Below are positions 58,276-61,899 of a DNA stretch of 64,000 bases, piece after piece. The notes under the pieces were generated by a model. That model made no database searches. It worked only from the letters and a program-made list of their open reading frames with translations, and was not told the origin of the DNA. Each line of letters begins with the position of its first letter. Positions within the stretch are counted from its first letter, which is position 1. The translations under genes and the position numbers were made by a program. Source of the DNA: Escherichia coli (GTDB lineage Bacteria; Pseudomonadota; Gammaproteobacteria; Enterobacterales; Enterobacteriaceae); the NCBI RefSeq assembly GCF_003334785.1, contig NZ_QOWV01000005.1; one strand, given 5' to 3'.

Positions 58276-58755
58276 TTACTTCGTTTTCTCGCAATCCAGA
58301 ACTGTATTTACAATCATCTGATACCCCGTGCAGCGACAAAGATTTCCCGCCAGTCCGCGACGAATTTCCGTAATGGTTAATGGCTTCTCGCGTGGTTTCG
58401 CCAGCATTGCCGTGGTAGCCATAATCAGGCCAGGCGTACAAAACCCGCACTGCACTGCGCCGGATTTCGCATAAGCCTGCTGAACATGAGAAAGTTTTCC
58501 GCCTTTCGCTTCACCTTCCAGCGTGCGGATCTCTTTTCCTTCAGCCCAGGCGGCAAGGTATAAGCAACTGTCTATTGCTGTGCCGTCGACCAACACCGTA
58601 CAGGCACCACATTCACCCACGCAGCACCCTTGTTTGACACTTAGCAGTCCTTGTTCGCGGAGTAATTCCGAGAGCGGCGTGCCTGGTGCGGCGTGAAGCT
58701 GAAAAGGCATCCCGTTAATGGTGCATTCGATGGTAATTGTTTCGCTGTGATTCAT
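58276..58755 (-). CDS. xdhC: xanthine dehydrogenase 2Fe-2S iron-sulfur subunit, 159 aa
   Basis: Track ORF 58276..58755; plant-type and second 2Fe-2S Cys motifs ([22 protein letters not shown]). Confidence 0.95.
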
Positions 58756-59630
58756 TGCAATTTTCCCCCCGCCGCGGCGACGGCTTCGCTAATCACTTTT
58801 TTGGTCATCGTCTGGATGAGATGCAGACGAAACTCTTTACTGGCCCGCCATGAAGAACGCGGGGCGACATCTTGCAGGACAGATTCGCTGATAGCTTCCA
58901 GCGTTTGCAGGTTTAATGGCGCATTTTGTGCAGTCTGTTCGGCATGTTGGCAGCGAATCGGCGTTGGCGCGGCAACACCAAATGCCAGGCGTAATTCGCT
59001 GAAATTGCCGTTATCCAGTCGGCAATGTGCGGCGCAGCCAATCGTTGAAATATCCATTGCGTCGCGCATGGCATATTTAAAATGCGCGCTGCCCGCGTGT
59101 TCTTTCGGCTGTGGCGGAAAATGAAAGGCGACGAGGATTTCGTCATGCTCAAGAGACACTTTGCCCGGCCCGGTGTGAAAGCCATTAATCGGGACGAAAC
59201 GAACACCGCGCGGGGAGTGGATCTCCAGTTTCGCGTCATAAATTAGCGTTGGCGTGGCAGAATCTGCGCTGGTGGCACCGTTGCAAATATTTCCACCGTA
59301 GGTAGCGACGTTACGGATCTGCGGTCCAGCAATGGACGTGGCCGCAGCACATAACGCCGGGAGATGACGTTGAGTTATAGGATCTTCTATTAGCTGGGTA
59401 AATGTCGTTGCAGAGCCGATACGTAGCGAGCCATCTTCCGCCAGCGTAATTCCCCGCAGCTCCGCCAGATTATGAATATCAACAATATGGCGATAACGGT
59501 CATTGTGATGGTGGAGCTGAATCAGTACGTCAGTGCCACCGGCGAGCAGTTTGGCCTGCGGGTTGTCAGCCAGCAGGTTGATGGCATCGGCAAGGGTTGC
59601 TGCGCGATGGTAAGAAGCAAAATCAAACAT
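58752..59630 (-). CDS. xdhB: xanthine dehydrogenase FAD-binding subunit, 292 aa
   Basis: Track ORF 58752..59630, [39 protein letters not shown]...; 4-nt overlap with xdhC. Confidence 0.95.
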
Positions 59631-59640
59631 GATGTTATCC

Positions 59641-61899
59641 TCAAATCAATCCTGCCAGATGGAACTCTTCATATAACCGTTTTGGCGTCAGCGGCAGTGT
59701 ATTGATTGCAACACCGGTAGCCATCTTCACCGCGTTACGAATAGCAGCGGCAACAGGAATTATTGGTGGCTCACCCAGTGACTTATGTCCGTATGCGGAT
59801 TGCGGCTCATTGATTTCGACGAACGCGCTTTCCAGTTGTGGCAGATCCGGCATGGTCGGCATTTTGTAATCCAGCAGATTGGGGTTACGGACCACGCCGC
59901 TTTTAGCATCGATGATCATCTCTTCAAATAGCGCCCAGCCAATGCCCATTCCCATTCCGCCGTGTACCTGACCTTCTGCCAGCAGTGGATTAAGAATATG
60001 CCCTGAATCATGAACGTTGAGGATGCGGTTGATGGTGACTTTGCACAGCGCAATATCGACCGTCAGATCAACAAAGGTACAGCCAAACGCCGGTGGGTTA
60101 GTGGTGGTTTTGATGGAGCTTTCAGCAGAGAGCTGCCCGCCGCGTTCAGGGTGGTAGAAAGCGTCCATCGCCAAATCTTTTAACGACATTAACGGCTCTT
60201 CCGGTCGTTCAACCAGCACGATATGGCCTTTTATCAGGGTCAGATTCATCGCTGACTGATGTAGCATGACTGCGGCGTGAGCGATGATTTTCTCTTTTAA
60301 TAATAGTGCCGCACTGCGCAGCGCAGGCGCGGCAACATAGCTCTGGCGTGAGGCAAATGCGCCGGGATCGAACGGCGTAACGTCGGTATCTTGAGTTGAA
60401 ATAACGCGAACGTCGCTGACCGGAACCCCCACGGTTTCTGCCACCATTTGCGAGAAGACGGTGTCGGCACCCTGACCGATTTCCGTCGCGCCGCTTTGCA
60501 CGTTGATGGTTCCATCCTGATTCATCAGAAGGCGCGCGCCTGCTATTTCTACGCCGACAGGCCAGGTGTTAGAGGTGTAGCTAAAACAGGCGACGCCAAC
60601 GCCGCGGCGCAAATTGCCTTGCTGGTTCTGGCATTCTGCACGGCGTTTTTCCCATTCAAAGATTTTCCGGCCTTTTTCAAGACACTCCGGCAACCCTGCG
60701 CTGTAAATACGTTTGCCCGTGAGCGGATTAGCATCTCCTTCGCGGGCGGCGTTGCGTAAACGAATTTCAACAGGATCAATACCTAACGCTGTCGCGGCGT
60801 CATCAAGCATAGACTCAACGGCAAATACGACTTGTGGCGCGCCATAACCACGCATCGCACCAGCCGAGGGGAGGTTGGTATAGCAGGTCTTTGAACTGTA
60901 AGCGTAGGCACAACGAGGATAAAGGTAAGCGACTTTATTCCCCCCCGCAGAAGCGATGGAGTGCCCGTGAGATGCATAAGCGCCGGTGTTAGACAGAACA
61001 TCCAGACTATAACCTTTCAATGTTCCGTCGCGGTTCACGCCCATTTGCCCGTCAATGGTAAAAGCGTGGCGGGTACGGGTTGCGAGGAAACACTCTTCAC
61101 GGCTAAGGGAAACTTTCACCGGAATGCCGCCAAGCTTGCTGGTCAGGAATGCCGCCATTGGCTCTTCCAGTACATCCTGTTTATTACCAAAACCGCCACC
61201 GACAAATGGTTTGATGACTCGTACGCATGACCAGGGAATATCCAGCGCCTGACCAACCACGCGGCGAACAATGTGCGGGATCTGGGTGCTGGAAACGATG
61301 GTAATTCGCGAGTCATCCTCCATCCACGCCAGCGATGTTACGCTTTCCATGTGACAATGTTGAATAACGGGGGTCTGATAGTGCCCCTGTACCTGGTAGT
61401 CGGCGGCATCGATTGTTTGTTGGACATTACCCGTCGACATCGTGCTTTGTTTCAGTAAATTGCCACCGTTATGGATTGGTGCAGCGTCTTCTGCCAGCGC
61501 CGCTTCTGGCGTGGTGATAACGGGTAATTCTTGCCACTCAATGCTGACCAATTGCGCCGCTTTTTCTGCCGTGAGTTCATCGCGGGCCACGACGATGGCA
61601 ACGGCGTCACCATGATGACGAACATGGCGAGTTAGCAGTGCGCGATCGGCGGTATCGCGCTTGTTTTCGTCAAGTGTCCAGGCATGCCCAGCTGTAGCGA
61701 ATGGAATATCAGGCACATCTTCCCAGGTAAAAATCGCCAGTACGCCCGGCAAACTTCTGGCTTGTTCATCATTAATACTTACGGCATAACCATGTGCGAT
61801 AGGGCTACGTACATATTTCGCATAACACATGCCCGCCATAACATAATCGTCAGTATATCGTGCCCGCCCGGTGACCTTAGCAATGGCATCGACGCGCAT
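59641..61899 (-). CDS. xdhA: xanthine dehydrogenase molybdopterin-binding subunit, 752 aa
   Basis: Track ORF 59641..61938; start refined to Met 14 (MRVDAIAKVTGRARYTDDYVMAGM...). Confidence 0.93.
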   Translation of the reverse strand: MRVDAIAKVTGRARYTDDYVMAGMCYAKYVRSPIAHGYAVSINDEQARSLPGVLAIFTWEDVPDIPFATAGHAWTLDENKRDTADRALLTRHVRHHGDAVAIVVARDELTAEKAAQLVSIEWQELPVITTPEAALAEDAAPIHNGGNLLKQSTMSTGNVQQTIDAADYQVQGHYQTPVIQHCHMESVTSLAWMEDDSRITIVSSTQIPHIVRRVVGQALDIPWSCVRVIKPFVGGGFGNKQDVLEEPMAAFLTSKLGGIPVKVSLSREECFLATRTRHAFTIDGQMGVNRDGTLKGYSLDVLSNTGAYASHGHSIASAGGNKVAYLYPRCAYAYSSKTCYTNLPSAGAMRGYGAPQVVFAVESMLDDAATALGIDPVEIRLRNAAREGDANPLTGKRIYSAGLPECLEKGRKIFEWEKRRAECQNQQGNLRRGVGVACFSYTSNTWPVGVEIAGARLLMNQDGTINVQSGATEIGQGADTVFSQMVAETVGVPVSDVRVISTQDTDVTPFDPGAFASRQSYVAAPALRSAALLLKEKIIAHAAVMLHQSAMNLTLIKGHIVLVERPEEPLMSLKDLAMDAFYHPERGGQLSAESSIKTTTNPPAFGCTFVDLTVDIALCKVTINRILNVHDSGHILNPLLAEGQVHGGMGMGIGWALFEEMIIDAKSGVVRNPNLLDYKMPTMPDLPQLESAFVEINEPQSAYGHKSLGEPPIIPVAAAIRNAVKMATGVAINTLPLTPKRLYEEFHLAGLI

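Follow-up and report, generated by a model that had tools for sequence, protein, structure and literature searches.

In the Rhodobacter-type xanthine dehydrogenase the iron-sulphur and FAD portions are fused in XdhA, the molybdenum site is carried by XdhB, and XdhC is a chaperone for insertion of the molybdenum cofactor (PMC2997495). In Escherichia coli, deletion strains published in 2025 have separated the two purine-active molybdenum enzymes XdhABC and XdhD-YgfM. The xdhA deletion strain consumes no xanthine (PMC12507026, Fig. 4b-c) and the xdhD deletion strain consumes xanthine and accumulates urate, with XdhABC oxidizing xanthine to urate and XdhD-YgfM reducing urate to 2,8-dioxopurine (PMC12507026). 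The operon, its subunits, its sigma-54 promoter and the division of labour with XdhD have all been published, and the present analysis carries little weight as discovery; it adds corrections on gene order and on the strand of a terminator, and cross-genus support for the sigma-54 promoter of xdhABC. With a probability of about 95%, we read the interval as the canonical K-12 xdhABC locus, encoding a three-subunit enzyme of the urate pathway, with a sigma-54 promoter, a probable YgeV enhancer and an inherited gene order.

Results

The stretch of DNA analysed, hereafter the window, is 64 kb long and agrees with E. coli K-12 MG1655 at 100% identity; there the region is annotated xdhA/xdhB/xdhC in RefSeq (b2866-b2868); the region is matched in 5419 of 5426 complete E. 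coli genomes. On the minus strand, ORFs, RefSeq and NCBIfam together define xdhA for the large, molybdenum-cofactor subunit (59641-61938, 765 aa, also supported by Pfam), then xdhB for the medium, FAD-binding subunit (58752-59630, 292 aa), and finally xdhC for the small subunit with two [2Fe-2S] clusters (58276-58755, 159 aa). Only 10 nt separate xdhA from xdhB, which has a GAGGA ribosome-binding site, while xdhB and xdhC share an ATGA at 58752-58755, a 4-nt overlap between the xdhC start codon and the xdhB stop. Convergent with xdhC lies ygeV (isrR; 56458-58236, plus strand), a sigma-54 enhancer-binding protein gene recognized from its ORF, RefSeq and an AAA+ domain, and divergent from xdhA lies actS (ygeR; 62353-63108, plus strand), annotated in RefSeq, whose product is an amidase-activating lipoprotein with LysM and degenerate M23 domains. 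ActS scores 454 bits against the cut-off of 375 for the ActS equivalog NF040883 and has the lipobox LLLAGC, and its Citrobacter orthologue contains LysM and Peptidase_M23 domains; as a neighbour of xdhA it is not conserved in Klebsiella, Yokenella, Hafnia or Aeromonas, and it is functionally unrelated to xdhABC. The subunit assignments and order, the 4-nt overlap, and the position between a convergent ygeV and a LysM lipoprotein gene had all been proposed in an earlier note on this DNA and are borne out here. An Rfam scan of 56000-64000 gave a single match, tRNA-Gly at 63187-63257, which leaves both the operon and its leader without a known RNA element.

One boundary in that note needs correction. 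It ended xdhA at 61899, which is an internal ATG belonging to an older 752-aa annotation, whereas RefSeq starts the gene at 61938 (765 aa), and this start is the sole point on which annotations differ for an operon otherwise identical to K-12 xdhABC in sequence, annotation and context. A GAGGGG Shine-Dalgarno sequence lies 6 nt upstream of the ATG at 61938. In Hafnia, Edwardsiella, Aeromonas and Serratia the homologous proteins start upstream of the residue aligned with E. coli XdhA Met14, where they have K, R or L, and Gly10 is invariant in the N-terminal alignment. The true start is probably 61938 rather than 61899.

All three subunits match their E. coli-type NCBIfam equivalogs over their full length: XdhA at 1486 bits (NF007426, cut-off 916), XdhB at 534 bits (NF007427, cut-off 287) and XdhC at 342 bits (NF007387, cut-off 212). 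XdhA also exceeds the cut-off of the XdhA family NF043082, with 1216 bits. The domains are those of the xanthine oxidase, or molybdenum hydroxylase, superfamily, with Ald_Xan_dh_C, MoCoBD_1 and MoCoBD_2 (PF01315, PF02738, PF20256) on the identical XdhA protein, FAD_binding_5 and CO_deh_flav_C (PF00941, PF03450) on XdhB orthologues, and Fer2 and Fer2_2 on the orthologous small subunit. Eight cysteines of XdhC, Cys44-X4-Cys49-X2-Cys52-X11-Cys64 and Cys103-X2-Cys106...Cys140-X-Cys142, align with those of solved Fe-S subunits. In XdhA, the GGGFG motif, R363 (AMRGYG) and E723 (GEPP) are invariant among 13 gammaproteobacterial orthologues; E723 is the putative catalytic Glu and R363 the putative substrate-binding Arg, and they would correspond to bovine Glu1261 and Arg880.

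Upstream of xdhA on the minus strand lies a sigma-54 (-24/-12) promoter, CTGGCGTAAATCTTGCC (61994-62010), supported by sequence, conservation and published ChIP-seq. We looked for GG and GC exactly 10 nt apart in a TGGCAC-N5-TTGC-like element, on the same strand as the gene and upstream of it, and found TGGCGTAAATCTTGCC at 62009-61994, which has this spacing and agrees with the consensus at 8 of 12 positions; from the GC of the -12 element to the ATG at 61938 the distance is 56 nt. A search for TGGCAC-N5-TTGCW with up to two mismatches returned 48 matches against 44 expected and did not single out the xdhA promoter, which has three mismatches. As the consensus pattern alone can neither find nor validate this promoter, conservation and published ChIP-seq are needed. 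The GG-N10-GC arrangement upstream of xdhA is kept in Citrobacter, Klebsiella, Yokenella, Morganella, Hafnia and Aeromonas while its flanks diverge, and the identical 17-mer is the sigma-54 ChIP-seq site OS29, assigned to xdhA (PMC4591121). A sigma-70 promoter is not supported, a scan of the region having given three sites against 4.4 expected. In vitro gSELEX with RpoN holoenzyme lists the ygeV/ygeW spacer, with the xdhA promoter absent, and the same study places an NtrC 'type B' peak inside xdhB/xdhC.

Further upstream, two inverted repeats resembling TATCA-N3-TGATA form a putative enhancer, or UAS (62108-62141, minus strand). They are spaced by 21 bp, precede the -24 element by some 100-130 bp and are kept as a pair in seven genera. 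Each of the three remaining sigma-54 promoters of the window is likewise preceded by the motif, with matching sites at 56290-56302, 46622-46634 and 31252-31264; of the seven sites that the 64 kb contains at no more than one mismatch, five precede one of the four sigma-54 promoters. In the interval separating the UAS from the -24 element, the invariant columns of the seven-genus alignment mark a conserved block, TTTTTAACGTCATCACACTTCC (62038-62059, minus strand; core TCAC-n-nTTCC), which might bind IHF or a second regulator. YgeV is a sigma-54 activator whose AAA+ domain matches many families of enhancer-binding proteins in a profile search, and its gene remains syntenic with xdhABC in Citrobacter, Klebsiella and Yokenella. 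Because the operon combines a sigma-54 promoter with paired sites of a motif shared by the three other promoters of this class in the window, YgeV, the product of its convergent neighbour, is probably its activator. Dependence of the xdhABC promoter on YgeV is likewise suggested by the shared upstream motif together with membership of xdhABC in the YgeV iModulon, an iModulon reported to be rarely active (PMC10602906), and YgeV may bind the candidate TATCA-N3-TGATA enhancer. Neither the sigma-54 promoter nor the probable regulatory link to ygeV had figured in the earlier reading.

The stop codons of ygeV and xdhC are 39 nt apart, and between them lies a perfect 24-nt palindrome, ATCCGGCCTGAATTCAGGCCGGAT (58246-58269), with a GC-rich 10-bp stem and an AAUU loop. 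It is the longest perfect palindrome in the window, where just one other reaches 16 nt, and its fold energy of -20.6 kcal/mol corresponds to z = -5.8 against shuffled sequences. On the ygeV (plus) strand the stem, with seven GC pairs, is followed by AUCCUUUUAC, as in an intrinsic terminator, and the run of U is found solely on this strand. The tail on the xdh strand is UCACUGAGG; a bidirectional terminator is not supported, given the minus-strand tail UCACUGAGGUUAUG and a terminator scan that gave no minus-strand site at the spacer. What had been described as a perfect palindromic terminator separating xdhABC from ygeV is indeed a perfect palindrome with a U-tract for ygeV, but the xdhABC strand lacks one; judged by its sequence, the hairpin has the form of a canonical intrinsic terminator for ygeV only, not for xdhABC.

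The Mo-FAD-FeS order, large-medium-small (L-M-S), had been called unusual. Within the XdhA family NF043082 it is the sole order, found in 58 of 58 informative loci from Pseudomonadota, Acidobacteriota, Spirochaetota and Bacillota (four further loci, cut by contig ends, were left out of the count), and we correct the description accordingly from an oddity to a family rule. Just outside the family the order becomes (FAD)-FeS-Mo: among ten loci scored against the NF043082 cut-off of 780 bits, the six with L-M-S order reach 931-1275 and the four with (M)-S-L order 687-749. At the M/S junction, start and stop codons overlap by 4 nt in each of the seven gammaproteobacterial loci; over the 54 loci scored, 21 have such an overlap (16 ATGA, 3 TTGA, 2 GTGA).

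Discussion

The operon would be transcribed from the sigma-54 promoter at 62010-61994, with the paired upstream enhancer probably serving YgeV, encoded by the convergent neighbour, and xdhABC would belong to one regulon with the genes beginning at ygeW, with ygfK-ssnA-ygfM-xdhD and with ygfT/uacT. The molybdenum cofactor of XdhA is the predicted site of hypoxanthine and xanthine hydroxylation, from which electrons would flow via the two XdhC [2Fe-2S] clusters to the XdhB FAD and finally to NAD+. This electron path and the NAD+ acceptor are taken from the family, since a structure search returned no solved structure of XdhABC and the literature accessible to our search held no purified-enzyme study of it. 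XdhABC makes urate from xanthine, or may run in reverse for salvage, and XdhD-YgfM then reduces that urate to 2,8-dioxopurine in reductive uricolysis. Through the candidate enhancer motif xdhABC is linked with the three remaining sigma-54 promoters of the urate/purine cluster, and the motif may guide footprinting of YgeV, whose regulated pathway is now of interest for gut urate clearance.

Which of XdhABC and XdhD is physiologically dominant had been left open in the earlier note, which proposed comparing xdhA and xdhD deletion strains. That comparison is already in print and answers the question: loss of xdhA blocks xanthine use and loss of xdhD leads to urate accumulation (PMC12507026), and the two enzymes catalyse successive steps, without redundancy. 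It could still be asked whether XdhABC works in vivo mainly as a reductase, turning urate into xanthine for anaerobic purine salvage, and not mainly as a catabolic xanthine oxidizer, as xanthine-producing gut bacteria have been proposed in the literature to use XDH in the reductive direction. We consider this doubtful, though not negligible: xanthine consumption that depends on xdhA, with urate building up once xdhD is deleted, points to the oxidative direction (PMC12507026), although the two directions are not mutually exclusive.

Inheritance and selection should both be considered for the gene order. We read the order and its tight coupling as a trait inherited across the whole XdhA family; alternatively they may be functionally selected, for example if co-translational assembly favoured making the Fe-S subunit last and coupled to the FAD subunit. 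The invariance of the order across four phyla and the recurrent M/S overlap, universal among the gammaproteobacterial loci, speak for selection, but within-family conservation is also what vertical inheritance of an operon predicts, and related enzymes assemble with other orders, such as FeS-FAD-Mo in paoABC and FAD-FeS-Mo in coxMSL (PMC2997495). In the window itself, ygfM (FAD) precedes xdhD, in which FeS and Mo are fused. Selection in this general sense appears unlikely to us, and its narrower form, in which the strict order, the frequent coupling of the last two genes and the abrupt switch outside the family would reflect clade-specific selection for ordered co-translational assembly, slightly more so. 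The palindrome raises a comparable question, as a perfect DNA palindrome is typical of sites for dimeric proteins and no U-tract follows it on the xdh strand, which would suit a protein-binding operator or a REP-like element in place of an RNA terminator hairpin. Citrobacter, however, retains the stem with a different loop, the central AATT being replaced by a non-palindromic GAGTGC context, so that selection seems to act on RNA pairing rather than on the spacing of DNA half-sites. Other genera carry unrelated strong hairpins at the same place, and the E. coli element fits exactly between two stop codons, with UAUCCUUUUAC after it on the ygeV strand, and occurs once in the window. Given the Citrobacter stem pattern, the position and the single copy, we reject a REP element or operator as highly improbable and retain the reading as a terminator for ygeV.

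Compared with described systems, the E. coli enzyme shares superfamily, cofactor set and reaction with the xdhABC products of Rhodobacter capsulatus and Pseudomonas (TIGR02963, TIGR02965), but its subunits are separate and score far below those families: 301 bits for XdhA against 849 for TIGR02965, and 170 and 103 bits for XdhB and XdhC against 467. The E. coli 'XdhC' is an Fe-S subunit, unlike the chaperone of the same name. A candidate for the chaperone is YqeB, whose gene lies at 48185-49810 of the window. The Mo-FAD-FeS order likewise differs from that of Rhodobacter xdhAB (fused FeS/FAD, then Mo), coxMSL and paoABC, and we place E. coli XdhA outside those lineages because of its low TIGR02965 score and because its closest solved relative is 4-hydroxybenzoyl-CoA reductase (PDB 1RM6, 348 bits). 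The latter is likewise a three-subunit enzyme, with a different substrate and reaction, and XdhA reaches 536 bits against its family cut-off of 995. Nor does the operon belong to the Bacillus PucCDE type, with 383 bits against 784 for pucD, 97 against 306 for pucC and 134 against 254 for pucE. Within E. coli, XdhD-YgfM (38238-41884, minus strand) is a paralogous molybdenum hydroxylase with a regulon and pathway in common with XdhABC, but there the FAD gene leads and a 956-aa protein with FeS and Mo fused comes after it, and the enzyme reduces urate where XdhABC oxidizes xanthine. The XdhA_XDHase family (NF043082-NF043084) of gut Bacillota, Holophagaceae and Treponema resembles E. coli in having its three subunits encoded separately and ordered L-M-S, with large subunits 41-49% identical and above the equivalog cut-off, but without the ygeV/actS neighbourhood.

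Results

The Mo-FAD-FeS order of xdhABC, which the earlier note had thought unusual, is a trait inherited within the XdhA family and not an anomaly, because this order is kept throughout the family while order across the superfamily varies freely; paoABC and coxMSL, for example, have orders other than that of xdhABC (PMC2997495). Our survey used phmmer to find the genes for the Mo (L), FAD (M) and Fe-S (S) subunits in six gammaproteobacterial loci and 80 loci from a species-representative genome collection. An L subunit at least ~41% identical to XdhA was found in 62 loci, spanning Enterobacterales, Aeromonas, Holophagaceae, Treponema and many Bacillota, and 58 of these were L-M-S, the remaining four being interrupted by a contig end. 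At 38% identity or less, all 24 loci (Chloroflexota, Nitrospinota, Bryobacterales, Marinimicrobia) were ordered (M)-S-L or had S-L as a single reading frame. Ten loci were tested against NCBIfam, and the switch in order coincided with the 780-bit cut-off of the XdhA_XDHase equivalog NF043082: six L-M-S loci scored 931-1275 bits and four (M)-S-L loci 687-749 bits. In two Holophagaceae loci (L009 and L010, at 9700-13300) a second molybdenum hydroxylase set, ordered L-S-M, directly follows the L-M-S xdh operon, so that two paralogous operons of unlike order stand side by side.

The operon itself is already known, and its layout was described correctly. RefSeq places xdhC at 58276-58755, xdhB at 58752-59630 and xdhA at 59641-61938, all on the minus strand, between convergent ygeV (56458-58236, plus strand) and divergent actS/ygeR (62353-63108, plus strand), the LysM lipoprotein gene, whose product has the lipobox LLLAGC and whose orthologue has LysM and M23 domains. 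The 4-nt xdhB/xdhC overlap is an ATGA common to both, and the 10-nt gap between xdhA and xdhB holds a GAGGA ribosome-binding site. Each subunit exceeds its own NCBIfam equivalog cut-off along its whole length, and on alignment with solved Fe-S subunits XdhC has the eight cysteines for two [2Fe-2S] clusters. E. coli K-12 MG1655 is 100% identical over the window's last 8 kb, which finds matches in 5419 of 5426 complete E. coli genomes; in several the query splits into two matches, and the annotation beneath them shows IS elements (IS1, IS903B, ISApl1) or an integrase. A tRNA-Gly (63187-63257, plus strand) lies directly past actS, and a type B, intragenic NtrC peak has been reported by gSELEX at xdhB/xdhC (MG1655 coordinate 3,001,538; PMC8743547).

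One coordinate needs revision. The xdhA end formerly given, 61899, is the ATG of an older 752-aa annotation, and the 765-aa RefSeq form from ATG 61938, on the same minus strand, is better supported because orthologues in Hafnia, Edwardsiella, Aeromonas and Serratia begin seven residues ahead of the conserved RVDA motif and have K, R or L at the position of E. coli Met14, Gly10 (765-aa numbering) is invariant, and GAGGGG, a good Shine-Dalgarno sequence, precedes ATG 61938.

The 39-nt spacer between the ygeV and xdhC stops holds ATCCGGCCTGAATTCAGGCCGGAT (58246-58269), a perfect 24-nt palindrome with none longer in the window, a fold energy of -20.6 kcal/mol (z = -5.8) and, in the middle, an EcoRI site (GAATTC). 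Just one further perfect palindrome in the window is 16 nt or longer: AACTGGCGCGCCAGTT (54631-54646), within dpaL/ygeX. A protein-binding site may also be palindromic, but an RNA hairpin fits better, because Citrobacter keeps the stem with a different, non-palindromic centre, and Yokenella, Morganella, Hafnia and Aeromonas have strong but unrelated hairpins 3' of xdhC. The perfect palindromic terminator proposed for this spacer holds in part. On the plus strand AUCCUUUUAC directly follows the palindrome and the terminator scan is passed, so that the hairpin is a canonical terminator for ygeV; on the minus strand the tail is UCACUGAGG, the scan called no site, and for the xdhABC transcript the element is a hairpin without a U-tract.

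Regulation of xdhABC had been overlooked. Upstream of xdhA lies a sigma-54 promoter, CTGGCGTAAATCTTGCC (62010-61994, minus strand), its GG and GC dinucleotides separated by exactly 10 nt; the identical 17-mer is the ChIP-seq site OS29, assigned to xdhA by Bonocora et al. 2015 (PMC4591121), who also list sites for ygeW, ygfK and ygfT, and all four are located in the window. The -24/-12 element is kept in Citrobacter, Klebsiella, Yokenella, Morganella, Hafnia and Aeromonas, where the surroundings have diverged. Counting against the xdhA site, in vitro gSELEX with RpoN holoenzyme lists the ygeV/ygeW spacer and lacks the xdhA promoter. Some 100-130 bp upstream of the promoter element are two TATCA-N3-TGATA-like inverted repeats, 21 bp apart (62108-62141), a pair kept in seven of seven genera. 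Allowing one mismatch, the motif occurs only seven times in the 64-kb window, and five of these sites precede the four sigma-54 promoters by 100-310 bp: xdhA, ygeW twice, ygfK and ygfT/uacT (beyond the xdhA pair, 56290-56302, 56388-56400, 46622-46634 and 31252-31264). The ygeW site is kept in four further genera. Given the sigma-54 promoter, the shared upstream motif and the membership of xdhABC in the 'YgeV iModulon' (PMC10602906), YgeV, the product of the convergent neighbour, is probably the enhancer-binding activator of xdhABC. We infer that the motif is a candidate enhancer site bound by YgeV; no description of it was found in the literature searched. Between this putative enhancer and the -24 element lies TTTTTAACGTCATCACACTTCC (62038-62059, minus strand), a possible target of IHF, CRP or a second regulator; its TCAC..TTCC core does not vary among the seven genera.

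Discussion

The earlier interpretation was partly right and is out of date. Whether XdhABC or XdhD dominates had been left open, yet the deletion-strain comparison then proposed is already published (PMC12507026): loss of xdhA prevents xanthine consumption, which occurs in wild type and after deletion of xdhD, urate accumulates in the xdhD deletion strain, and purified XdhD-YgfM reduces urate to 2,8-dioxopurine with NADH. Its authors conclude that neither enzyme duplicates the other and that they act in succession, XdhABC being also capable of converting urate to xanthine for salvage.

The paralogous pair ygfM-xdhD (38238-41884, minus strand) differs in arrangement from xdhABC: the gene for the FAD subunit leads and that for a fused FeS-Mo protein follows, with a 4-nt overlap (41105-41108); one locus thus holds two architectures of one superfamily. 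Candidate maturation genes lie away from both operons (46686-49810): mocA/ygfJ, for a Moco cytidylyltransferase; yqeC; and yqeB, in whose product an XdhC-like domain is joined to a selenium-linked one. The E. coli XdhC is an Fe-S subunit, unlike the chaperone bearing the same name.

XdhA residues 247-254 (~61177-61200, minus strand) form the motif GGGFGNKQ, its final Gln254 invariant. In classical XDHs the residue at what would be the matching position is a substrate-binding Glu (bovine Glu802); if the two positions do correspond, the active site of the XdhA family would differ from that of the textbook enzyme. When tested, XdhA belonged to neither the Rhodobacter-type nor the Bacillus-type XDHs, and among solved structures it is closest to 4-hydroxybenzoyl-CoA reductase, with bovine and Rhodobacter XDH ranking behind.
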